Of a DNA stretch of 64,000 nt, positions 4,721 to 55,392 are shown in pieces. The translations under genes were made by a program, and so were the position numbers. Numbering within the stretch: the first letter of the stretch is position 1; every line of letters starts with the position of its first letter. The stretch comes from Octopus sinensis (taxonomy: Eukaryota): NCBI RefSeq assembly GCF_006345805.1, contig NC_042998.1, positions 8,060,001 through 8,124,000 on the forward strand, in the 5' to 3' direction. The notes under the pieces are model-generated. The model made no database searches and had not been told where the DNA came from. It saw only the letters and a list, made by a program, of their open reading frames with translations.

Positions 4721-5417
4721 TATTCGTATATTCTGCATTTTTCACGCTTTCTTCTACGAGCTAAAGTGCAAATGTGTGCATAACTATACTTTGCCCATAT
4801 TTTCCTGTGTACATTTACACATTAACTAATAAAAAAATTAAACAACTGGTAACACTAAAGCACCAGTCTGGTTGGTAACATTCCTAGCTAAGACATTGCA
4901 GAAATGAAGAATAACTGAAAGGGATTAGTGTAATCAGGGATGAAATTCCAGCTGGGATTTGGCTTTACAGGAGCTTAACAGTGCTCTGTGATATTGACGT
5001 TCGCATATAGCTGTATAAATATGTTCCAATTCATTATACGTTTGTACAAACCTACATGCATCTATGTATGTATATGTGTCTATGCGTGTGTGTAGCTATA
5101 TAAATATAAATAGGGACAGAGTAAGATAAGAGAGGAGAGAAGGTGGGAATGAAGGGAAGGCCAACAAATGTGAGAGAGGGCGAACGAGAAAAAGAAAGGG
5201 GAAAAGAACGAAGTAAGTGTGAAGGGGTTGAAAGAAAGAGTGAGTCGTACAGAATTTACATACACACACACACACACACATATATATATATGTATGTATG
5301 TATGTATGTACATAAATATCTACATATATATATATATTTACACACACACACATTTAAATATATATATATATACATATGTATGTATGTATATAAATATCTA
5401 CATATATACATATATAT

Positions 5418-5452
<35 letters not shown>

Positions 5453-5511
5453 CATATGTATGTATGTATGTATGTATATAAATATCTACATATATACATA
5501 TATATACATAC

Positions 5512-5571
<60 letters not shown>

Positions 5572-5575
<4 letters not shown>

Positions 5576-6022
5576 ATCCATGACACCAGCCATGCTCTTC
5601 GTTTGTTCAATTTTTTCTCCTTCTCTCCTGTCCTCTCTAAACTTCTCTTCACTCTTGACATCAAGAAGACTTTTGATGTCAAGACGGGGATCTCTCACCA
5701 CGAGGGGCTGCGTGCACTCCAACACTTCCTTGACCTTCGACCCAACCCCGAACCTGACACATCCACACTCATTCGTCTGGCCGAACTTGTCTTCTCACTT
5801 AACTGCTTCTCGTTCGTGGGTGATTTTTATCAGTTGTCGGGAGCAGCCATGGGAACGAGAATGAGCCCCAACTATGCGAACTTGTTCGTTGGCTACGTTG
5901 AGGCCTAAATAATCTCAAGTTTCACTCGTCCCACTCCTGAACTATACGGTCATTATATTGACTGTATCGGTGCGATCTCACTCTCCTGCGAACACCTAGA
6001 CTTTTTCCTCCCATTTGTCAAA
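5572..6022 (+). pseudogene. Penelope-like element reverse transcriptase fragment
   Basis: LLFTLDIK...[15 protein letters not shown]...[16 protein letters not shown]...[21 protein letters not shown], then a stop and a degenerate YID motif. Typical PLE RT core; abuts (TA)n. Confidence 0.85.
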
Positions 6023-21731: not shown

Positions 21732-21989
21732 ATGTGTGTGTGTGTGTGTGTGTGTGTCTGTGGAGAATGACAGACAAATAAAGACCGATCCCGTGGCCAT
21801 TTCTAAACTTTCCTCGATGTATAATTGGTTCACCAGTCAAGACAATAGGTTGTCTTTTCAAAGAATATGACTATGTCGAGTAAATTAGGGAGTAACATGC
21901 CACTGGTTGAGCCCAAAACAAACTAAATAAACTATTGGAATTCATAGTTGTATTGAGCACTTAAACATATATATATATATATATATAAA

Positions 21990-22315
21990 CGTATATAAAC
22001 AGAAGATACAAATATTACAGGCATCATCCCACACACACTAAATAAACATAGACGCACATAGAGATATAAGCATGCGCAAAAGAAGACATACAATAGAAAT
22101 ACAAAATGGCTGACGGTTAGTAAGGAGAGACACAAATAAGAAAGAAGAAAACAAAGGACCACTGATGCGGTCACAGGAGTGTGACGAAAGAACTCTGGCC
22201 GAAATAAGATTAAGGTTAATGTAAAAAAATAAATAACACTGAAGCAAAGTAACACTAAATATATAGTGCGTGTGTTTTTATTGGCTAAACTGGCAAAATG
22301 ACCATTCCGAAATAT

Positions 22316-22320
<5 letters not shown>
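21990..22320 (+). mobile_element. Solo PLE pseudo-LTR (family A) containing an HHR
   Basis: Nearly identical to 33200-33535, the 3' pLTR of the GIY-YIG element; flanked by (TA)n. Confidence 0.85.
22156..22200 (+). ncRNA. Hammerhead ribozyme, variant core CUGAUGC (family A)
   Basis: GGACCA-CTGATGC-G-GTCAC-aggagt-GTGAC-GAAA-GAAC-TC/TGGCC; identical to 33372-33416. Confidence 0.7.
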
Positions 22321-22371
<51 letters not shown>

Positions 22372-23396: not shown

Positions 23397-23465
<69 letters not shown>

Positions 23466-23466
23466 G

Positions 23467-23623
23467 TTTAAATATTTGTTGTGCAAGATTTTTTACGTGA
23501 AGTCGTGTGTTGAAACAGATATTGTTATATTTCGGAATGGTCATATTGCCAGTTTAGCCAATGAAAACACACGCACTATATATTTATTTGGCTAAACTGG
23601 CAATATGACCATTCCGAAATATA
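23467..23623. mobile_element. Head-to-head inverted fragments of family A pLTR 3' end
   Basis: 23467-23584 is the reverse complement of about 33475-33590; 23586-23623 is in forward orientation. Repeated at about 24755-24915. Confidence 0.8.
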
Positions 23624-23624
23624 A

Positions 23625-23657
<33 letters not shown>

Positions 23658-24686: not shown

Positions 24687-24733
<47 letters not shown>

Positions 24734-25609
24734 TATAGATAATATATAGTACGTTTAAATATTTGTTGTGCAAGATTTTTTACGTGAAGTCGTGTGTGGT
24801 TGAAAACAGATATTGTTATATTTCGGAATGGTCATATTGCCAGTTTAGCCAATGAAAACACACGCACTATATATTATTTGGCTACTAAACTGGCAATATG
24901 ACCATTCCGAAATATAAATATATATATATATAATATAATTATATATATATATGGATGGATGTATATCTATGTATGTATGTATATTATTTGATGAGGGATA
25001 TATACGAAAGTCTAAGCCTTGAGTTACATTTGTAAATTTCTGCTTATTAAAAAAACATATATAATATCGTCATGTACTGAGTTCTGTTTCATCTGTTCTT
25101 TCAACCAATAAGTGTGTCGGAATTTCAAACTAATAATGTTTAGTTGTTCAGTCAATTTAACAGCAGAAATCGAATTAGCGTGCAAGCGGTTGAGTACTCC
25201 AGAGACATATACACACTGTATAACATATAGTTGTTTATCCTCAGAGGATACGACAATGTTGATATTTTTTTTATGACCAGTGTTCTCGTAGATACAGGTA
25301 AAGTGTGTTGTATTTCTATTCATTGAAACAAGTTATTGTATCTTTTCTTTCTCTGCTTAATTACTTCTCCATGCTCATTAGGAACGGTGACGCAATGGAA
25401 TAGCTTTTCACTCTATTAGATGAAATATGTTTTGCGAATCGACAAATGCATAGCAGAAATATACCGTTAATCAATTCCATGCTAGATTGGACGTTCCTAG
25501 TATTGACTCTTCATCTTAGTACGCAAGAAGCGGCATAATTACATAAAACGAAGATGCGAAAGTAATCAAAAGCAGTTTTCTTATCTATATCCTATTTTGG
25601 TTTAGTAAG

Positions 25610-27297: not shown

Positions 27298-29444
27298 TTT
27301 ATAGAGAGAGAGAGACAGATGAAGACTGTCGAAGCACCAATTACACAGTTGAGAACTCGATTTAGTAACCACTGCAGATATGTCGCTACTTTATGTAGGA
27401 TAAGCTCAATTATTAAAATTTTTGATGAATCTGAATCTGTGCCGCATTTCCAAATATTATGACTTAGCACAACTGATATTTTCACATGATGCAATATTAA
27501 GTTTTTAAAATGCTGTTTAATGCATGCATGACTAAGGCGAAGTCAGGCATCATGAAGATGAAGAGGAAGACTGCAGCTTTTCGATGGCGTATGATACTTT
27601 ACTTTTAATTTCTAAAACTTTGCCCGAAAGGAAATTTGAAGCACGAAGTGAAAATGTTAAAATAGGGAAAATATTTTAATCAAAGCTTATCTATATCAAC
27701 TTCCAATTCTTGATATTTTAAGCGAATATATTTAGAAAAAGCCGGTGAAATTAGATCGTAATTGGTAATTAATTTATCACATAAATTAAAATGTTTAACT
27801 CAGAATCTCGTATTATTAAGGTTCACTGGAGTGAGAAAAGTACTTCTAATAGTTAGGATGTTTGGTTTTGGGCGACAAAGGTTTCATACTTTCTCGATAA
27901 GTTTGATTGTTATAGGATGCTGAGTAAAGGAATGAAACCAGAAGCGGCCGACAACAACTATGTGTGAGGTGACTTCGGTAAGATGAGCAAAAATATCCTC
28001 CTAAATTCTGGTCACGGATTCCAGTATCAAAATCTTTCAATGAAGTTTATGGATGTTTATTACAGTAAAGTTTATGGAAGTGTCAATAAAATGTTTATAG
28101 AAGATATTATTAAACAATTAGTCCCCTTAAAGCCAGTTCGGTTCTCATGCAAAGAAAAGCTCCTAGTGTGTGTGGAGTGTTAGTATATACATAAGGCGAA
28201 CATTGCGATATGCTATTGATTTCAAATATTGGTACAAGGCCGGCAGATTTGGGGGGATGGAGTAAGTCGATTACATCGACGCCGGTGCTCAACTGGTACT
28301 TATCTCATCGAAGCTGAAAGGATGAAAGACAAGAATGATCTCGGCGGAAACAGAAATCACAACATGAAGACGGGCGAAATTACAATAGTATGGTAGTTGT
28401 TTCGATTCCTGGACCGAACAATACATTGTTTCCTTGCAAAAAGCCTTTCATTTTAGTTCACGCAACTGCAAATGAGTATCAGATGTGTGTCTTGTACTAA
28501 GCAATATTAATTAACTTCTTTCCTGTTCTAACGGTCAACACCGACTTAAACCCTTATTGTTTCTTCGCACCCAAATTCACTTTGTCCCAAATTCTCTTCC
28601 TCATTCTCTTGACCACCACATTTATCATCTTTTTGGTCACATATCTCTTAAGTATGCGCGACTACAAATTTCCTGAGCTTTCTTGTAATTCTACACTATA
28701 TCCACGGCCCATGAAGAAAGGACAAAGAAAATGTTTTCTAAAACTCCAAGCCGGACATTGGATGCTAACCGTTGGAAATTATTCTCCCAATGATATATGA
28801 AAGCAAGTACAATTTTTGCAGACACCAATAGTTTCTACTGATTCCTATTTAAAAACAAAATTCTTCATCGATCCTATCATAGTTACAACTGTTTCATCAC
28901 CTCGTACAAGTGACATGTCTGAGAGAGTGCTACTGAGTATATGAATGCACGTGATATTTCATTCGATTGGTAAACCTCACACATGAATTATCTATCGTAG
29001 GCATGCTGTCTCCTCACTATTTCTTATCTCCTTTTTTCTTTTAGTTATTGAAGCTATAACTGTATCTGCTCCTTTGATTTGCCAAACTCTGTTCCACTTC
29101 CGCCCCGCTTCATTCATACTCCTTTTTCTTTCTCATCACATCATTTATTAAGTTCTTTTCACTCCAACACTTCACACTACACACTTTGTGCAATATTTCT
29201 TCCCTCGCCGTTGCAATTTTTCAGAGATTCCTGCGATTCTTGTAAACTTTAAAATACTAATGGCAATCATCACTACATTCTTTCTTTGAAGAAGATAAGA
29301 TGCGATGTGAAGTAAAACGGTGGGTGGTCGGACTAGAAATGCTTTGGTCGTTGCCTCACATCTCCCTGCTAATTAATAAGATCAGCTGAGTGTAAATTCC
29401 AGGGCGCTGCATTTGTTTGTTTGGTGTTTTAATGGAAAATTCAT

Positions 29445-29518
<74 letters not shown>

Positions 29519-29556
29519 GAACAATCTTACTTAGAAAGGGATGCGTGCGTTCTGTC

Positions 29557-29912
29557 ATATAATAAATAAATAAAATATATGCATATATACATGCATATAT
29601 GTACGTACCTACCTCTACATGTATATATACATGCATATATGGGTACAGGACACCAAAAAAAAAAAACGTCGAACACAATGAGAAACGAAAACATAAACAC
29701 AAAACCAAGGAAATGGACGTCCTGTACTCTAGTTTTTCGTTGTTTTAAAAAAATGTCCATTTCCTTGGTTTTGTGTTTATGTTTTCGTTTCTCATTGTGT
29801 TCGACGTTTTTTTGGTGTCCTGTACCCATATATGCATGTATATATACATGTAGAGGTAGGTACGTACATCTATGTATGTATATATGCATATATTTTATTT
29901 ATTTATTATTTA
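29557..29912. repeat. Long inverted repeat (~160-bp arms, 36-nt spacer)
   Basis: 29557-29718 is the reverse complement of 29755-29912. Confidence 0.85.
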
Positions 29913-30024
29913 TTTATATATATATATTAACTACATCATGGGGTGTGGATGAGATTTAATGACAAGTGAGATGGATAGATGGAGAGGGGGATAATTGAAC
30001 AAGCTGTCTGTACATTCACAAAAT

Positions 30025-30177
30025 TTCATTTATTTATTTAGTCGTTTACCATTGTATTGGAATGGGCTGAAGAATAGTGACCTCTTCAAAGAAAAAAAAA
30101 ACAGGCGCGGTGTTGAAGAGGTCACCATCCTTCAACCCATTCCAATACAATGGTAAATGACTAAATAAATAAATGAA
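30025..30177. repeat. Hairpin/inverted repeat (65-bp arms, 23-nt loop)
   Basis: 30025-30089 pairs with 30113-30177 with few mismatches. Confidence 0.85.
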
Positions 30178-30372
30178 TGGTGAATAGGAAGGGGGATCCC
30201 CTTCACACTCTACCTATCTATCTGTCTTACTATCTATCTGTCCCTCTATCTGACTATCCAAATATTCATCTATCTGTCCATCCATCCTTCTATCAATCTG
30301 TCCATCCATCCATCCTTCTATCTATCTGTCCATCCATCCATCCTTCTATCTATCTGTCCATCCATCCATCCT

Positions 30373-30408
<36 letters not shown>

Positions 30409-31151
30409 GCTATACCTCTATCTATCTCTATTGCCATGGAACCTCACTCCCATAAAACAAAAACAATGTTCTCTTCTTCTAAACAGACCCCCCCCCAAAA
30501 AAAAAATGTTTTATATAAATCAACAAGCTGTCTGTACATTTACAAAATTTCATTTAAAAAGTTCTTGAAACGAACGAAAGCGCTAATAATAATGAAGAAA
30601 TACAATGATTTCTTTCCAAAATTCTGATGACTTTTTTTTCTTCTCAATATTAATATATATATATATATGTGTGTGTGTGTGTATTGGTTTCAAATGTTGG
30701 AACAAGGCCAGAAATTTCGGGGCTAGGGGTAAAGCAATTACATCGAATCCAGTTCTCAACTGGTGCTTATTTTATCGATGGCGGAAGAATAAGAAGCAAT
30801 GATGATCTCGGCGAAAATTGAACAAGGAAAGTAAAGACGGATGAAATGCCGCGAAGCACATTGCCCGGCGTGCTAACGTTTCTGCCAGCTCGCTACGTTA
30901 AAAACAAACAAAACACACAAATACACAAACACACACACTAGAAAATAATATAGTTGCCTGAGTAAAACTTATATAGTCTTACTGTGATATGAAGCTCTGC
31001 CAATATACATACAAGTCTTGATAGCCTCCTGTGCCGAACTGGCAGCAAAATTTCGAAATTCTTCAAATTTTCGACAAACTTTGTTTAACGCGTTGCTATG
31101 AAACCGAGAACTAATGCAAATTTGGAGAATAATTCATTAAAAGATTCGTAT

Positions 31152-31550
31152 ACTCTTTACTCTTTTACTTGTTTCAGTCATTTTACTGTGGCCATGCTGG
31201 AGTACAGCCTTAAGTCGAGCAACTCGACCCCAGGACTTATTCTTTGGAAGCCTAGTACTTATTCTATCGTTCTCCTTTGCCGAACCGCTAAGTTACGGGG
31301 ACGTAAGCACACCAGCATCGGTTGTCAAGCGATGTTGGGGGACAAACACAGACACACAAACATATACACATATACAAATATATATACGATGGGCTTCTTT
31401 CTGTTTCCGTCTACCAAATCCACTCACAAGGCTTTGGTCAGCCCGAGGCTATAGTAGAAGACACTTGCCGAAGGTGCCACACAGTGGGACTGAACCTGGA
31501 ACCATGTGGTTGGTAAGTACGCTACTTACCACGCAGCCATCCCTACGCCT
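31152..31550 (-). mobile_element. SINE family 2
   Basis: Matches the other family 2 copies. Confidence 0.85.
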
Positions 31551-32029
31551 CCATATATTGGTTTTCGTTTCAAATTGATGCGGGAACAATTGATGCAACA
31601 GCACATAATGAACATTATAAAAACTGCCGCGCAGATGTATACTTAGTAATTATACTTTCTCCAATGGGTAAAAAGAGATGAAGTTTGGTGGGGAAAAGGA
31701 AGTCGATTACACCGAACCCCAGGGCCCGACTGGTACTTATTTTATCGGTCCCGAAAGGATGAAAAGCAAAGTCGACCTTGGTAGCTTTAGGAATCAGAAC
31801 GTGTAGACGAACGACATGCCTCAAAGCATGTTGCCAGGCGTGCTATCGATTCTGCCAGTTCGCCCCTTTAGCATATTTAGTAATTATAAAACTTTTATAT
31901 ATACATTGTTATATTTCGGAATGGTCATATTGCCAGTTTAGCCAATAAAAACACACGCACTATATATTTGGTGTTATTTTGCTTCAGTGATATTTATTTT
32001 TTACATTAATCTTAATCTTATTTCGGCCA

Positions 32030-32868
32030 AATTCAATATTTTGATGGCAGACCTCGTCAGAATAATGAGAAATGTGTCACGCATGTGCGAGCCTACAGAA
32101 TTAAAGAGACACATACAGTATTTCATTCACCGCATGCAGTTCTCAGGTTACAGCCATAAAGAAAGGATCAGAGTATACAAAGGAGCCATGAAGAAATTTG
32201 ATAATATATTATGTAATGATAGGAATGGGATTTGCCCACTCTATAGGAACAAGTCATGGAACACTATAGAAAGGACAAAAAAGAAAATAGGGAAGGCCAA
32301 CTCTTGGTATGATAGCCATAAATACCAGAGTGTCATGTTCGTTGACACCACCCCTGGAGGTGAACTGGCGAACCGCTTTAGAAGGACCCTAGATAAATTT
32401 AAACTAAGAATTAAGGTTGTTGAAAAGCCAGGCAACCCTATCAAATCTATAATTGGTAGAACCTATCCTTTTAGTAGAACCCTCTGTACGGATAACTATT
32501 GCACTGTATGTAGATTTAGCCCACAAACAAACTGTAAAGCCAGAAATGTAGTCTATAGTATAAGATGTATAGAGGGACGATGCAGTAACAAGACAGTAAC
32601 ATACGTAGGGGAAACGGCAAGAAGCATAGGAGAGCGGGTGAATGAACATTGGAGACAACTCAAGGAAGGTAAAAGCTCATCGATTCTGTACCAACACGCC
32701 GAACAGGAACACGGGGGATCAATCAATAACATAGAGATTAAGATATTGTCCACACATAGAACAGATGCAACAATTAGACAAATTACAGAAGCTACACATA
32801 TAATAGAAAATAAACCTAGCCTGAATAGAAAACTAGAATGGAGCAATAGCACACACCACAACATATGA
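32030..32868 (+). CDS. PLE RT thumb, Cys-rich linker and C-terminal GIY-YIG endonuclease (5'-truncated, frame open)
   Basis: FVDTTPGGELA, CTDNYCTVC..NC, NVVYSIRC...YVGETARSIGERVNEH, H...EH, EA..I...PSLN. The first ~14 aa of the track ORF (from 31987) come from the inverted pLTR. Confidence 0.9.
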
Positions 32869-32985
32869 CGATAGAGGATCCCGAAAACATAATAAATACA
32901 CAGATAAATAAACAAATAGAAATGAATAACTATATATATGTATATATATCTATGTATGTATATGTATGTATATATATATATATAT

Positions 32986-33017
<32 letters not shown>

Positions 33018-33371
33018 ATGTGTATATATGTGTGTATATGTATATATATATCTTTTTTTTCGATTAGATTTATTATTATTATTACTAATATTGTTGTTAT
33101 ACATACATACAAGCATATGTAATGATAATAATGGGTGGATATAAACACATGAACAAAATTAGAACAAAAGCAACAACAAAAACAAAATACAAATTACATG
33201 AATGTATATAAACAGAAGATACAAATATTACAGGCATCCCCCACACACACACACTAAATAAACATAGACGCACATAGAGATATAAGCATGCGCAAATGAA
33301 GACATACAATAGAAATACAAAATGGCTGACGGTTAGTAAGGAGAGACACAAATAAGTGAGAAGAAAACAAA

Positions 33372-33416
33372 GGACCACTGATGCGGTCACAGGAGTGTGA
33401 CGAAAGAACTCTGGCC
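33372..33416 (+). ncRNA. Hammerhead ribozyme, variant core CUGAUGC, in the 3' pLTR
   Basis: CTGATGC 33378-33384; stem II GTCAC/GTGAC; GAAA 33402-33405; predicted cleavage CTC after 33411; sense to the PLE ORF. Confidence 0.75.
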
Positions 33417-33627
33417 GAAATAAGATTAAGATTAATGTAAAAAATAAATATCACTGAAGCAAAATAACACCAAATATATAGTGCGTGTGTTTTTATTGGC
33501 TAAACTAGCAATATGACCATTCCGAAATATAACAATATCTGTTTCAACACACGACTTCACATAAAAAATCTTGCACAACAAATATTTAAAAGTTTTATAT
33601 ATACATATATACATATATATATACATA

Positions 33628-33852
33628 TAGCTGGCATAAACGTTAGCACGCCGGGCGAAATGCGTAGCCCTATTTCGTCTGCCGTTACGTTCTGAGTTCA
33701 AATTCCGCCGAAGTCGACTTTGCCTTTCATCCTTTCGGGGGTCGATAAATTAAGAACCAGTTACGCGCTGGGGTCGATATAATCGACTTAATCCGTTTGT
33801 CTGTCCTTGTTTGTCCTCTCTGTGTTTAGCCCCTTGTGGGTAGTAAAGAAAT
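33628..33852 (+). mobile_element. SINE family 1
   Basis: Matches the family 1 consensus. Confidence 0.85.
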
Positions 33853-33978
33853 ATATATATATATATAATATATATATATAATATATATATATATAATATA
33901 TATATATATACATACACACATACATACGTACATATATATAACGAACTAACTGTTACTTTCTCAGATGCAGCACGGATT

Positions 33979-34029
33979 TTTGTCAGTGAACAGGTCGCGG
34001 TCTTATAGCGACGAAAATATTTTGACAAA
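33979..34029 (+). ncRNA. Hammerhead ribozyme with G3-C8 swapped core (GUGAACA)
   Basis: Stem I TTTGTCA/TGACAAA; GTGAACA 33986-33992; extra G; stem II GTCGC/GCGAC; GAAA 34013-34016; palindromic AATATT stem III. Lies in a ~230-bp unit between (TA)n tracts. Confidence 0.65.
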
Positions 34030-35905
34030 TTAAACTTAAATGTTGCAGTGAATCGAACGGCTTTTTTGTGTTTCTTAAATGGCTTATAAACACCTTCCAC
34101 GCTGCAATTGTTTTCGTTCCAGCACACGATCTCAGATCAAATCACTTGCTATGCAAGTACATCACCGTAATATATATATATTATTGCTGTAAAATAAATT
34201 TCCTCAAATACAGCTTATAGTATTGTCAAACTGACGCTGATATATAAATTTGCAACACTGGTTAGATTTAAATGCATTTTCTTTTAGACATTTTTCCCCC
34301 GCAGCAAGTTTTCTCTAAATCATACCAAATTTCATGAATATGTTTACCCATGAAGTTCTTTACATTCTCCTTTATAAATGCAACATAACTCAAAGAAACC
34401 TATCTGAAAGCAGAAAAGGTTTGTAAGAAATTGGATTTTGAAATAATTTTGTAATTCAAATACATAATAATATACCTTAAAATTCGGAGTAATAAATATA
34501 TCAGAACAAAATAGCCAGAGGAAATAACTAAATAAACTACACATAAAATGCATATTATTATTATTAACTGTTTCATTTCGGTGTCATGGTGATGAATTAA
34601 ACGCTAACGCGATGTTAGGGAAATTTCAAAGTCTGCAGATAAGTTCTGTAGACACGGAGTGCTGCCGAATAGAAGCAGCTCATTGTTGTTGAGGAATAAA
34701 AAAAATAAACGTTTTACTTCAAATACGATCTTATCGTTAGAGGCGGTTTAAAGTTTTACGGAACAAGAATCATGGGAACACGGTGAAACAAGAAGTTTAA
34801 TGATTAAAGAAATACTTAGTAGAATATGCCTTTCATCTATCAAACTGTAGATTGCATAAATACTGAAAAACTTCAAAGAACATATTTGGGGATTGGGAAA
34901 TAATGGATATATTACATCAGTACACAACAGATGCTACTGTAAAATTCCTACGGATGTACATGTATAATGGCTGTCTCTGTAGCTAAGAAATATCACTAAT
35001 AATATCTTTACCTATAATAATATCTAATAATATCTTTACCTCTGCAGCATTACTCAAAGAAAAATATCAGAAACCAGAAAAGATTTGTAACAAATTGGAT
35101 TTTAAAATAATTTCGTAATTCAAATAGATTATCTTATACGATAAAATTCGATGCATTAGATACATCAGAACAAGATAGCCCGAGGAAACCACTAAATAAA
35201 GCACACATAAACTATAATTTATCATTCAACATCGTTTTTGACAGTGAGTCAATTTTGGTTGATAATTGGAGCCTCTATCGGTCAAGGCTGGTCACACATC
35301 AGCACATGCCTAGGCAAAGTTTTTATTTGAGAAAGACGCAGTTTTGCCATGCATGCAACGCTTCCCTGCGGTACCGATTTTATTCAGGGGAAAAGTCTAC
35401 TCACTTGAACTAAACCAGGGTGACGCATGCATTACTATCACAACACAAAGAGTCGGAAAGGTACCGCGCCCCTGAAAGAACAAAAGCTGAAGTTGACTTC
35501 GGTGGGATTTGAGCTCGGAACGCTGAGATTCTGAACAAAAATCATGAAACGTTCTATCCAACGCTCCAAAGGACTGTTATAAAATAAATTAACACTTGCT
35601 TCACAACTTCATAGTTCGGTGTTCAGTACCACCGTGTGGTACCTTTGGCTAGTGTCCTCTATTATAGCATACCACCGACTAAAAAATTCTTCAGTAGACT
35701 TGATAGAAGGAAACTGGATGAAACCTGCAGTGTGTATTTATGTATATATATATATATATTATATATATATATAATATATATATCAACAATCAAGGAACGG
35801 CCATAATAGGCCATTCACCCACTAGAAATAACAGCCAAAGCTTCAACCGCAAATAAAAATCAATTCCGTAAACCAGGAGAAAATTTAAAAAACATTTACC
35901 CTGTA

Positions 35906-36012
35906 ATTTCTTATACGATGCACCGTTTCATCTGCTGTTTAATGGTAAACTAACCTGATTAAATTAAATCAAGCCAATCTTCCATAGGCCCTCAGATTCT
36001 TCAGTAAGAAAT
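35906..36012 (-). ncRNA. Hammerhead ribozyme (family C, minus-strand copy)
   Basis: Reverse complement of 36528-36634. Confidence 0.85.
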
Positions 36013-36527
36013 AGCCAAGCCGGAACAGATATTTTCACGAGGCATTTCCGACCCTGCCAAGGCAATATCTGACCTAAAATTTTCAAATCATCGCACTCGC
36101 GCCAAATTTATCGGCAGCAAATAAATATAAGCCGTCGATTCCATTACGGAATTAACCAGAAAATTCATAATTAATCAATATAGGGTGGCAAAAAAATTTT
36201 GTAGAATTTTTTTGCCACCAGCGGCCTAGTGGGAAAAAATTAAATAGTCATAGACCATTTTTAAGTTCAACATCAACAATCAAGGAACGGCCATAATAGG
36301 CCATTCACCCACTAGAAATAACAGCCAAAGCTTCAACCGCAAATAAAAATAAATTCCTATATTGATTAATTATGAATTTTCTGGTTAATTCCGTAATGGA
36401 ATCGACGGCTTATATTTATTTGCTGCCGATAAATTTGGCGCGAGTGCGATGATTTGAAAATTTTAGGTCAGATATTGCCTTGGCAGGGTCGGAAATGCCT
36501 CGTGAAAATATCTGTTCCGGCTTGGCT

Positions 36528-36634
36528 ATTTCTTACTGAAGAATCTGAGGGCCTATGGAAGATTGGCTTGATTTAATTTAATCAGGTTAGTTTACCATTA
36601 AACAGCAGATGAAACGGTGCATCGTATAAGAAAT
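36528..36634 (+). ncRNA. Type I hammerhead ribozyme (family C)
   Basis: Stem I ATTTCTTA/TAAGAAAT; CTGAAGA 36536-36542; stem II ATCTG/CAGAT with a 58-nt insert; GAAA 36611-36614; stem III ACGGTGCATCGT; GTA cleavage after 36626. Confidence 0.85.
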
Positions 36635-36881
36635 TACAGGGTAAATGTTTTTTAATTTTCTCCTGGTTTACGGAATTGATTTTTATTTGCGGTTGAAGCT
36701 TTGGCTGTTATTCTAGTGGGTGAATGGCCTATTATGGCCGTTCCTTGATTGTTGATGTTGAACTTAAAAATGGTCTATGACTATTTAATTTTTTCCCACT
36801 AGGCCGCTGGTGGCAAAAAAATTCTACAAAATTTTTTTGCCACCCTATATTGATTAATTATATATATATATATATATATAT

Positions 36882-37247
36882 ATTCTTTTATTCTTTTACA
36901 CGTTTCAGTCATTTCACTGAGGCCATGCTGGAGCACCGCGTTTGGTCGAACAAATTGACCCCAGAACTTATTCTTTGAAAGCTTACTACTTATTCTATCG
37001 GCGTCTTTTTCCGAACCGCTAAGCTTCGGGGACATAAACACCCCAACATCGATTGTGAAGTGATGGTGGGGAGATAAACACAGACACAAAGACACACACA
37101 TATATACACACGACAGGCAAATCCATTCACAAGGCTTTGGTCGGGTCGAGGCAATAGTGGAAGGCACTTGCTTAAGGTGCCACGCAGTAGGACTGAACTC
37201 GGAACCATGAGATGGAGAAGTAACTTTCTTACCACACTCTCACGCCT
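36882..37247 (-). mobile_element. SINE family 2, diverged
   Basis: GGCCATGCTGGAGCACCGC and CAAGGCTTTGGTCGG blocks. Confidence 0.75.
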
Positions 37248-37909
37248 AATTTGTCTGTGTGTGTGTGTTAGTGTTAGTGATGTTTTCTCTGCGTCTTCGT
37301 AATTTAGCGGCAATGTAAACCAAGAGAATAAGTAGAATGCTTAAAGAAAACGAATTTCTGGGATCGATGTGTTCGACTTAACATTTCAAGGCGATATCTC
37401 AGCATGGCTGAAGTCCAATGTCTGAGACAAGTAATATATAGAAGGTAAAATATATTAATATAACTTTCCAAAAGCTGAAAAGGAGCATGCATTGCAAATA
37501 GTACCAGTCTTCGTATGTAACAGGCATCGTTAAGCATTTGACAAAATACTTTGCAGTAAATTTAGTTTCAGTCACTTACAGGCTGAACTCACATCCCATG
37601 AGACGTCTTTTATTTCTCCGGGTTCTATAATAAACCAAACTCGTCAGCTATTGGGACTGATTTAGCTATATCCTCTTCAACAAGGGAGTTCTTATTTCAG
37701 TTTGAAATCAATTACATTGCAATTTTGTAACCGAATTTCCGGTTGCATTCTGTTGCAGTGCACACACACATATATATATATAGGCGCAGAGGTGATTGTG
37801 TGGTGAGTGGCTTGCTTACCAACCACATGGTTCCGGGTTCAGTCCGACAGCGTGGCCCGGTGGGTGTTTTCTACTACAGCCTCGGGCTATAGTAGAAAAC
37901 ACTAAGCAC

Positions 37910-38190
37910 TGAGCATATGGCTCAGTGAGTAGGGCATCGGGCACACAATCATGAGGTAGCGAGTTCGATTCCCGGACGGGTTGTGATCTTGAACAAGACA
38001 CTTTATTTCACGTTGTTCCAGTTCACTCAGCTGTAAAAATGAAATGTTACGTCACTGGTGCCAAGGTGTATCAGCCTTTACCTTTCTCTTAGATAACATC
38101 AGTGGCGTGGAGAGGGGAAGGCAGTATGCACGGGCAACTGCTGGTCTTCCATAAGCAATCGTGCCCTGACTTCTACTTGGGAAAGGAACT
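37910..38190 (+). mobile_element. SINE family 4
   Basis: TGGCTCAGTG...GAGTTCGATTCCC head; similar to 25610. Confidence 0.7.
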
Positions 38191-38205
38191 TCAAGACGAC
38201 GCGGG

Positions 38206-38288
<83 letters not shown>

Positions 38289-38345
38289 AAAAAATGAAGT
38301 TCGAAAATGCTGCTGTATTATACAATTTTTAATTTTTATATATAC

Positions 38346-38390
38346 ATTATAACATGTTTCAGTTCCTGAAATGAACCTTATCAAAAAAAG
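38346..38390 (-). ncRNA. Possible U3-A8 variant hammerhead at the 3' end of the Neptune-like element
   Basis: Minus strand TTGATAA-GGTTC-atttcag-GAACT-GAAAC-AT-GTT; palindromic ACATGT stem III; stem I is weak. Confidence 0.4.
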
Positions 38391-38765
38391 TTATATATAA
38401 AAAGAGACAGCTCATGCCGTCAAACACAAGAAATTCATTTATAATACACAACGGAGTCAGACATCTTAGAGTTCATGTATAGTTGATATATAGTTCATGT
38501 ATAGTTGATATATAGTTTGAAGTATATGTTCAAAGTGTTCGATGCAGTGGCCCACGGTGGCGATACGTATTCAATACAAAAAACAGATCAAAGTGGTGGA
38601 AAGCGGTCAATACAGAAGATTGATGTTTCCGAAAGAGCGAGGAATTCATTTTTACCTTAAGCAATTGTGATGACCCATGGTGGAAGTTCGCTGGGTGGTT
38701 CTAGTGAGTTTTTGTGAAATGCTCGGTTTTATAATGCCTGTTAGGTGGTCAATCTAGTGTAGCGT

Positions 38766-39096
38766 GACGTCATCAATGTTTTGACCAATCGTTTCGTTAG
38801 GTGGCTTTAACCAAGTGGAACGGGACGTCATCATTATTTTGACCAATCGCTGCATTATAACTCTCTCTTGTTTGTTTCCTGTCTGACCAGTCGCTTCGTT
38901 AGTCAAGCATAGCGGGACGTCATCCAGATTCTGCCCAATCACGACTTATAGCTACATTAGATCTGCCCCTGTCTGTACTTGTTAGGTGACTATTCAAGCA
39001 GAAAAGGACGTCATCAATATTCTGACTAATGACTGTCCCCTGTTTGTATCCTGTCCATTCTAGCAGAGCTAGACGTCATCAACTTGTTGACCAATC
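38766..39096. promoter_or_regulatory. Array of five CRE-like/CCAAT composite motifs
   Basis: GACGTCATC-N8-GACCAATC-like at 38766, 38824, 38916, 39007 and 39072. Confidence 0.55.
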
Positions 39097-40184
39097 AGAA
39101 TCGGGTCTGACCCTTAGCTGTATCGTATGTATCAGGGTCAGATTTGCACGAAAGAATTTTTTTCCTTTTTTACTAAGGCATATTTCCGTCAGAGTGAGTG
39201 TCTGTTTGAAGTAGCGGCCGTGGTGAAATTTGGTTCTCCTTTTCGGAGGACTTATCTTTTGTTTTAGTATTCCTGGCCCAGGGTGTTTAAACTGGTCTAA
39301 ATTTTTTAATGAAATATAGTTCTTTATTTTGGCGTTGTGTGAAGGTTGCGTTGTCACTGAATTTATAGAGCGGGTTAGTTGTAAATTTCGGATTTACATT
39401 TCCAGCACATCTATCTATGTGTCCGCTGACCGGTATTTTGCGGTAATCAGGGTTTCTAATTTGTGATTTATGCACCGCCATCCTGTTACGTAAGCTATTT
39501 TTGTATGGCCTATATACTGCCTATTGCAGCCTGCGCATGTTATGACGTAAATTAAGTTTTCTGATGCGCAGGTGAAGTTTGTTCTAATGGTGAACTGGTG
39601 GCCTTGTTCCAGTATAAATTCTGATCCTTCTTTCAAGATGACACAGATTCCGCAGTTGGGCCTTCCACATTTTCTAACTGCTGGTTTTGTGGTTGATGTT
39701 GAGTGCAGTGTAGCTTGGGTTAAAATCCTTTTCAAGGATTTTGGTTGCCGTTTACTTTTAATGATGGTGTGTGTTTCGAGGATCCGGTTCATCTTTGGTC
39801 TCCCTTTAGTAGGGCTGTGCTTTGTAGTATGGTGTTGAAGGCCTCATTGTTGAGTGGGTTGTGTGTAGAGATGTAGGGAAGGGTTTTTAATTGTTCTTTC
39901 TTTTTTGGTTTTGTTTGTCTCAGGTCTTCTATACTTAATTTAAGTACCCGTTGGATTGCACTGTCTATTAGGGGCTGTGGATAGTTTCTATTTGTGAGTG
40001 TGGTTCTAAGTTCCTGGAGACGTGTGTGTCGGGTGTTTGTGTCTGATATATATATATATATATATATATATTCTTTTGCTTGATTGAATCATTTGACAGT
40101 AGCCATGCTAGAACACGGCCTTTAGTCGAACAAATCAATCCAGGACTTATTTTTGTAACTCTAGTTCTACATAGTTCGGGGCTC

Positions 40185-54558: not shown

Positions 54559-55313
54559 ACATATATACAGTGTACATTTAAACACGTAAGAGGTAGCCAT
54601 CATAGGACTACCTACACGCTAGAGAGGACAGTTAAATTCCGAACGACTATTAGAGATAAAAATCGAAGGGATGGAAAAATAAAAACATTTACCATCTAAC
54701 TCCTGTTTTTATTTTTTTCATTACCTCCGATTTTTATCTCTAATAGTGGTTCGGAATTTAACTGTCCTCTCTAGCATGTAGGTAGTCCTATGATGGCTAC
54801 CTCTTATGTGTTTAAATGTACACTGTATATATATGAATAATATATAGTCTATTGACTAAATTTTTACACGCTAGGCCACTGGTAATGGAAATTTCTAATA
54901 TTTCCGATTACCCTTTGATAATATTAAATATTAATTATTGATAAATTTTTGGATAATTTTCGAAACGAAAACGCCGACATATTAATTTGTTGCCGACAGG
55001 AAGCTGCGCTTGCGCGGTAGATTTGAAAAATTAGAATGTATAAGCACGGGGCATATACTGGATTACCTCGTGTATATATATTTAATCTAAGGTGTACCTG
55101 CTGAAGAAGGCTTCGCCTAGCAAATTATTTTATTTGCTAAAAAAAAAGTCTGAAACTATTGGTCCAGGAGTTAGTAAATGTTTATATTTTTCATTCCCTT
55201 CGATTTTTATCTCTAATAGTGGTTCGGAAATGTTACTATCCTCCCTAGCGTGTAGGTATGATGACTACCTCTTATTTATTTAAATGCACACTGAATAATA
55301 TAAGGTCTATTGA
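54559..55313. mobile_element. Head-to-head HHR-containing pLTR/retrozyme insertion (family D, ~473-nt period)
   Basis: 54559-54705 is inverted relative to about 54706-54835; about 54706-54855 is directly repeated at about 55180-55313; HHR at 55097-55168. Confidence 0.8.
55097..55168 (+). ncRNA. Type I hammerhead ribozyme (family D)
   Basis: CCTG-CTGAAGA(55101)-AGGCTT...AAGTCT-GAAAC-TATTG-GTC/CAGG; cleavage after 55164. Confidence 0.8.
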
Positions 55314-55330: not shown

Positions 55331-55392
55331 TAATAGCTGATGAGATACCGGAGCAGACTTCATTCCCGGTATCGAAACTCTGAGTTTTATTA
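55331..55392 (+). ncRNA. Type I hammerhead ribozyme (family E)
   Basis: TAATAG-CTGATGA(55337)-GATACCGG-loop-CCGGTATC-GAAA-CTCTGAG-TT/TTATTA; perfect 8-bp stem II. Confidence 0.85.

Follow-up and report, generated by a model that had tools for sequence, protein, structure and literature searches.

The window, the whole stretch of 64,000 nucleotides of Octopus sinensis DNA that was analysed, carries at 31887-33606 an ordinary shortened (5'-truncated) copy of a Penelope-like element (PLE), whose 5' end is formed by an inverted piece of its own pLTR (Table 1). The element, its architecture and its type of ribozyme are all of known kinds. Its family, here termed family A, displays the features of the EN+ PLEs: a reverse transcriptase (RT) with a C-terminal GIY-YIG endonuclease, partial tandem pLTRs, inverted truncated copies, and a tail at one end. 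The Pfam matches to the two enzymatic domains, GIY-YIG on the window ORF (E 7e-4) and RVT_1 on another copy, L347 (E 3e-3), are below the curated cut-offs, and the translations contain the YVDD and YVGET motifs. The linker of the window ORF, CTDNYCTVC, fits the CX2-5CXXC pattern of the Neptune/Nematis clade, as do the (TA)n flanks of the copies, which represent microsatellite targets; judged from these sequence features, the family is best read as a Neptune-type PLE. A 19-nt pLTR anchor has 4073 exact matches in the 2.7 Gb genome. In one tandem copy (L331) the unit spans about 3.9 kb and the ORF starts at the equivalent of 33513. At about 5300-4900 of the same locus, on the minus strand, an Asn/Ser/Gly-rich stretch lies within the N-terminal part of the full ORF and resembles the N-rich inserts of Adineta Penelope.

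Table 1. Features of the family A insertion, in positions of the window
Feature	Positions	Strand	Remarks
Left target-site duplication	31887-31906	+	AT-rich surroundings; 20 bp, of which 1-4 nt overlap the element ends; from sequence
Inverted arm, copy of pLTR 33412-33536	31905-32029	-	starts from the short RT site, without tail
Microhomology GCCA between arm end and ORF, 4 nt	32026-32029	+	inversion junction lies inside; 14/14 longer copies
5'-truncated ORF	32030-32868	+	RT end, CX4CXXC linker, GIY-YIG endonuclease about 32548-32712, stop 32866-32868
3' UTR / pLTR	32869-33371	+	contains a (TA)n-rich stretch
Second cDNA-end hotspot with TTAGT (33333-33337)	33324-33337	+	likely pLTR transcription start (inferred)
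Type I minimal hammerhead motif	33372-33416	+	C for A9, extra G before G10.1; stems I and II predicted
Predicted scissile bond CUC/UGGCC	33411-33412	+	from sequence
Start codon of next tandem ORF unit	33513-33515	+	from tandem copy L331
Short RT start site, where arms without a tail end	33536-33538	+	from copy comparison
Tail of about 55 nt, 3' end = second RT start site	33539-33591	+	from copy comparison
Right target-site duplication	33587-33606	+	from sequence

An earlier, sequence-only reading had described the inverted arm as the reverse complement of pLTR sequence beginning at 33412, with homology running no farther than the base that directly follows the predicted CUC cleavage site. A BLAST comparison of the element with the window agrees on both counts: 31905-32029 is the reverse complement of 33536-33412 over 125 nt at 99.2% identity, the arm starting one base to the left of the 31906 given before, and homology ends at 33412, where AAT follows and the pLTR reverse complement would continue with GAG. 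In each of the 14 other loci reaching farther upstream than 32030, the ORF reads GCCA/AATTC. As GCCA precedes the resumption of the ORF in all of these longer copies, 32026-32029 are common to both pieces, and the 4-nt microhomology leaves the break anywhere within 33412-33416, with 33412 being only its leftmost placement at this locus. The 20-bp flanking duplication has one mismatch between its copies.

The hammerhead motif consists of stem I (33372-77/33412-16), the core CUGAUGC, stem II (33386-91/33396-401), GAAA, a short stem III, and CUC, which makes 33412 the first base 3' of C17 in a type I minimal hammerhead. Both the sequence and the predicted fold place stems I and II around CUGANG...GAAA...UH. 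The conserved A9 is missing in most copies: position 33384 is C in 168 of 212 and A in 30, the latter being a minority lineage (30/212) that retains the canonical residue. No hammerhead was among the 31 matches (E up to 1) of an Rfam search of 28000-40000, and a PDB sequence search returned nothing useful. Position 33411 is C in 2633 of the exact matches and another base in 902, nearly all of them T among the 100 listed; this U17 subfamily accounts for about a quarter of the exact matches. Its RNA is predicted to fold stems I and II no less well than that of C17 copies, U at residue 17 is described as poor in the available text of PMC1636495, and its arms are longer (median 587 versus 265 nt; n=21 versus 27, p 0.04). 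Counting the 902 non-C bases before TGGCC as junctions was dropped, as these are mostly intact members of the U17 subfamily.

Several other elements are found in the window. A second PLE family (54564-54860 and 55096-55170) possesses its own hammerhead, with the core CUGAAGA and the site GUC/CAGG at 55164/55165, and a fold-back arm of this family ends exactly at that site with a 2-nt microhomology (1 of 14 partial matches). As a possible replication of the family A analysis below, a noisy tally by eye of 93 heterogeneous matches to the same family (hammerhead at about 55100-55165) gives roughly 36 ends to the right of the site, 13 to the left, and 3-4 at it. A third hammerhead motif at 55337-55380 has the canonical core CUGAUGA and an 8-bp stem II. 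Family A itself is represented by another pLTR copy with an intact ribozyme and a short end (21982-22323), which lacks an inverted mate, and by two mini fold-back insertions in a locally duplicated segment (23434-23637 and 24713-24948), with the junction near the equivalent of 33472. At 35767-36861 and 29559-29909 there are nested inverted repeats, both perfect (304 and 151 nt, 100%), along with a second hairpin element, belonging to another family. The region 5174-5908 is a fragment that by eye resembles a Penelope/Poseidon-type reverse transcriptase of a different family, and 38739-39105 contains five spaced occurrences of a 51-nt motif with GACGTCATC and CCAAT, which appears promoter-like.

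Two reverse transcription start sites and the inverted arms

Copies of family A end either at 33536-33538 or about 55 nt farther, past the tail. These two kinds of ends are combined in an almost invariant manner in head-to-head pairs: 218 of 242 join a short to a tail end, 2 join short to short, none joins tail to tail, and 22 are unclassified. The proposed priming of the arm on the other end of the target is borne out by these 218 pairs, which support a start of the arm at a second fixed site on the RNA. Since arms are often longer than their mates, each arm is a separate, independent cDNA. An origin of the arm as a fold-back copy of the mate cDNA was rejected as a general mechanism, given how often arms outrun the mate and that they have no tail; it may still apply to the 42 of 262 joins that are near-symmetric.

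The unselected sample comprised the first 54 of the 942 short-ended arms in genome order. Of these, 44 traverse the whole ribozyme core and 6 stop within it; another 3 finish at 33410-33416, and the remaining one beyond. With so few unselected arms (3/54) ending near the site, and with the 4-nt microhomology at its junction, the window locus alone is no evidence of cleavage. A stronger cluster of cDNA ends lies about 40 nt upstream of the hammerhead at 33324-33337: 10 of the 54 arms end at 33325-33337, mate ends cluster there too, and several symmetric fold-backs have their junction at 33326. The hotspot includes TTAGT at 33333-33337, which we take to be an initiator-like motif, and is likely a transcription start; if so, RNA 5' ends do appear as junction clusters in family A. 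Elsewhere along the pLTR the density of ends varies several-fold, and microhomology of 2-4 nt is strongly preferred at the junctions.

Ends of cDNAs around the predicted scissile bond

Junctions were selected genome-wide by a match to the pLTR anchor together with non-consensus bases upstream of it. The first set comprised 287 matches, of which those on the 30 chromosome-scale contigs were fetched and most of those on unplaced scaffolds left out; 248 were parsed, 246 remained after deduplication, 15 were flagged as indels, and 223-224 were kept after removal of indel-like and duplicate rows. The second set, obtained with the complementary filter, comprised 195 matches, of which 123 were parsed, 97 were non-indel and inside the test interval, and 90 were kept; the last chromosome-scale matches of this set were fetched only where they fell by eye in or near that interval (19). 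The combined test thus used 313 cleaned junctions within 33398-33424, and the window's own locus, which fails the filter, is outside this set. A single junction, placed at the cut site or adjoining it, recurs on 11 small unplaced scaffolds (e.g. L489-L491, L493, L496) and was left uncounted; this suggests amplification within a larger repeat. The status of a copy as C17 or U17 was read directly, from its mate, or from linked SNPs, and to the right of the site it was imputed, A33451 accompanying C17 in 88 of 96 copies and U17 in 3. Allowing either base at 33411 had produced a false mode at 33410 (32) and was replaced by this subfamily-aware calling. The null model combined a smooth spread of breaks with a fitted preference for microhomology and permitted chance extension. 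The position 33412 had been set in advance by the sequence-only reading, and the step and edge models were fitted after the peak had been seen.

The breakpoints are not uniformly distributed. Their mode is 33412, with 32 of 313 junctions against 15.7 expected under a linear and 18.4 under a quadratic null (Poisson p 2e-4 and 2.5e-3), and the remaining 26 positions fit the null with a dispersion of 1.0-1.1. In a scan of single positions 33412 is raised x2.6 (LR 14.0), with 33413 as the runner-up (LR 6.6). The first set alone has 24 junctions at 33412 versus 11.9 expected (p 0.0013); the second set alone does not replicate the single-base peak, 33412 being non-significant with 6 versus 3.9-4.6 (p 0.2-0.3) and 33414 being higher with 10 versus 5.

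The same region contains an edge, with the density of cDNA ends about 3-fold higher just after 33411/33412 than just before. Change points at 33411/33412 give LR 19.6/16.3 against the linear and 13.7/13.5 against the quadratic null, versus at most 2.3 for 33413, and once such a step is included the spike at 33412 drops to x1.8 (LR 4.6). The edge is seen in the first set (223 junctions; best at 33411, LR 10.2) and the second (90; best at 33412, LR 10.8), in short arms (LR 14.9) and tail copies (9.3), in direct joins (LR 8.3) and joins with inserts (13.8), and within the C9 main lineage (n=133, LR 12.6-15.5), which rules out that the signal comes from the older A9 lineage only. At 33412 itself, tail-bearing copies (10/106) and short arms (18/172) are both represented, indicating that the signal is not arm-specific. 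Restricting the analysis to C17 copies strengthens the edge to x4.1 (LR 26.6), whereas it is absent (x0.5-0.7) from the small sample of 43 U17 junctions; the Fisher p for this difference is 0.008-0.046, depending on the assignment of subfamilies.

Scaled by the detection rate of 0.80 and for unfetched scaffolds, the excess is estimated at about 20-25 copies at the single base and at up to about 180 in a 13-nt zone, overall roughly 0.5-5% of 4073. For the window arm, the fitted model puts the probability of belonging to this excess at 0.22 (exact run-off) to 0.71 (any cleavage-linked class). The earlier claims about mechanism are thereby modified. That the arm is a complete cDNA of the 3' cleavage product agrees with the peak and edge across copies, but as a general description it fails for the 44 of 54 arms that cross an intact ribozyme. 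Of the claim of cleavage in vivo with its product entering integration, a weaker form is supported by the population of junctions, the original version having over-read a single ambiguous junction and tied to the arms a signal that they share with tail copies.

Probable self-cleavage and its alternatives

We infer from these DNA junctions that the edge in cDNA ends is probably caused by hammerhead self-cleavage, with a minority of cDNAs ending on cut RNA; in the best reading of the estimates above, about 0.5-5% of family A cDNAs would do so. Against this count the 44 of 54 unselected arms that cross the core, the dependence of the single-base peak on subfamily imputation and its lack of replication in the second set alone, the uneven density of ends elsewhere along the pLTR, the core without the conserved A9, the absence of an Rfam hammerhead match, the small U17 sample, and the findings on Anolis Poseidon given below. 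The window arm, once its modelled value is discounted for cause, might tentatively be placed in the cleavage-linked class.

A reading without cleavage, in which folded stem I (33412-33416) or base composition stops or switches RT and microhomology joining completes the product, is unlikely. It draws on the exact correspondence of the 3' strand of stem I to 33412-33416, as well as on the favoured microhomology, the uneven end density elsewhere and the reading through of most arms. However, the microhomology-aware null accounts for the bumps at 33410 and 33421 and not for 33412, the U17 copies have both stems and yet no edge, and if structure stalled the RT, its ends should accumulate where it enters the stem (about 33417), a place at which no edge fits. 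Rather less likely still is an artefact of statistics or classification, by which the window junction and the pile-up would both be ordinary microhomology-driven truncations. The subfamily imputation does shift about 13 junctions from 33410/33411 to 33412, rows were curated by hand, several models were tried, and the single-base peak is unreplicated on its own; but the position was fixed beforehand, and six subsets each put the best edge at 33411 or 33412, within one base. The results also persist when joins close to symmetric, and repeats of a junction sequence, are left out (28 of 276 unique). Moreover, 9 of the 11 rows removed by hand (a duplicate among them) are right of the site, so that their removal works against the edge, and the filter detects junctions equally on either side of the site (0.80). 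The least probable alternative is that another RNA 5' end, from a minor transcription start or a protein nuclease cut, coincides with 33411-33412: the step fits 33411 slightly better than 33412 and a start at C33411 would likewise be C17-specific, but the modal base is 33412 and not 33411 (32 versus 8), the next base is C in only 3 of the 32 junctions at 33412, so that nothing indicates copying of a cap, the region 33324-33337 farther upstream is a likelier start, and the Penelope start of D. virilis is placed upstream of the hammerhead-abutting intron in the accessible parts of PMC2377424 and PMC4209133.

The insertion in the window was likely made by two target-primed cDNAs. The first started at the tail end (about 33591), read past an uncut ribozyme and reached the ORF over a length of 1.56 kb, and the second started at 33536-33538 on the opposite target strand and stopped within 33412-33416, after which the two cDNA 3' ends were joined head to head via GCCA. 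If self-cleavage is the cause of the edge, some template RNAs would begin at 33412 following the hammerhead cut, perhaps aided by dimerisation or protein, both reported as helping related motifs in the available text of PMC4209133 and PMC11167929. RT would then run off the 5'-OH end, to within one base, and this end would be joined intact or after the trimming of a few bases. At the window locus a single RNA could serve both primers, if its 5' ribozyme was cut and its 3' ribozyme uncut. As the start sites are only 126-180 nt from the 5' end of the cut RNA, cleavage would yield short arms only; for the ORF to be copied, the ribozyme has to be uncut or re-ligated, and a weak one, such as the C9 and U17 variants, would be favoured by this.

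Beyond what was observed, namely the architecture, the start-site pairing, the microhomology, and a peak and an edge where the scissile bond is predicted, we consider a broader scenario plausible though short of probable: the A9-less hammerhead would cut in the germ line, its 3' product would be loaded onto the retrotransposition complex, a two-site complex would invariably use the tail site for one target strand and the short site for the other, and cleavage would act as a brake from which the U17 subfamily escaped. In PLEs the hammerhead is weak in vitro and dispensable in the one reconstituted system, and evidence for its cleavage in vivo is absent from the portions of the literature examined. 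If the scenario is true, the junctions of PLE insertions would be a fossil record of hammerhead activity, with cleavage reducing templates of full length to short arms and longer insertions being made by the U17 subfamily; should cut ends be trimmed far downstream, a large share of the mini-insertions could derive from cut RNA. A base-resolved edge in thousands of fixed insertions, together with a natural poor-substrate control in U17, would make ribozyme activity readable from any assembly, and the prediction is that cleavage shortens functional copies rather than producing them. Through the near-obligate pairing of start sites, the tail at one end, already known, comes to constrain the integration complex quantitatively.

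Comparison with known systems

In L1 twin priming, two primers on opposite target ends give rise to an inverted 5' piece joined by microhomology. Family A resembles it in having an inverted 5' piece from two opposite-end primers and a microhomology join, and differs in that both of its primers use fixed internal sites near the pLTR.

Family A closely resembles the EN+ PLEs of the Neptune/Nematis clade. As they are presented in the accessible text of Craig et al. (2021, PMC8557442) and Arkhipova et al. (2013, PMC3846280), these share with family A the RT with a C-terminal GIY-YIG domain, the CX2-5CXXC linker, 5' truncation with an adjoining inverted truncated copy, a tail at one end, (TA)n targets, a hammerhead in the pLTR, and microhomology and palindromes at the junctions; their tail measures 30-40 nt, compared with about 55 nt in family A. 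The same descriptions, in the parts available, give the architecture but do not count how tails pair or where breakpoints fall with respect to the ribozyme, and the function of the hammerhead is termed unclear in PMC8557442. Our literature search, which covered mainly openly accessible papers, found no paper tying PLE breakpoints to hammerhead sites.

Anolis Poseidon PAc, going by the main text of Frangieh et al. (2024, PMC11167929), also has a tail defined by two neighbouring internal RT start sites, shown in vitro and placed slightly within the ORF, extension of both target strands, and AT-rich targets. According to the same text its cleavage is protein-assisted and dispensable in vitro, with no RNA-seq reads ending at the site; in contrast, the junctions of family A suggest that cut RNA serves as a minor template, and its two start sites occur, with hardly an exception, one at either end of an insertion. 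The minimal PLE hammerheads covered in the available text of Cervera and de la Pena (2014, PMC4209133) are likewise of type I, with a short stem I, a long stem II, a tiny stem III, an extra base before G10.1 and a G10.1-C11.1 pair, and are expected to be weak or dimeric; family A departs from them in being mostly C9 (168/212) and in its large U17 subfamily. Finally, the HDV ribozymes of R2 and L1Tc, as outlined in the accessible part of a review (PMC6765202), offer a precedent for a ribozyme that can set the template's 5' end; unlike in those elements, cleavage in family A would shorten the product rather than define the full-length copy.
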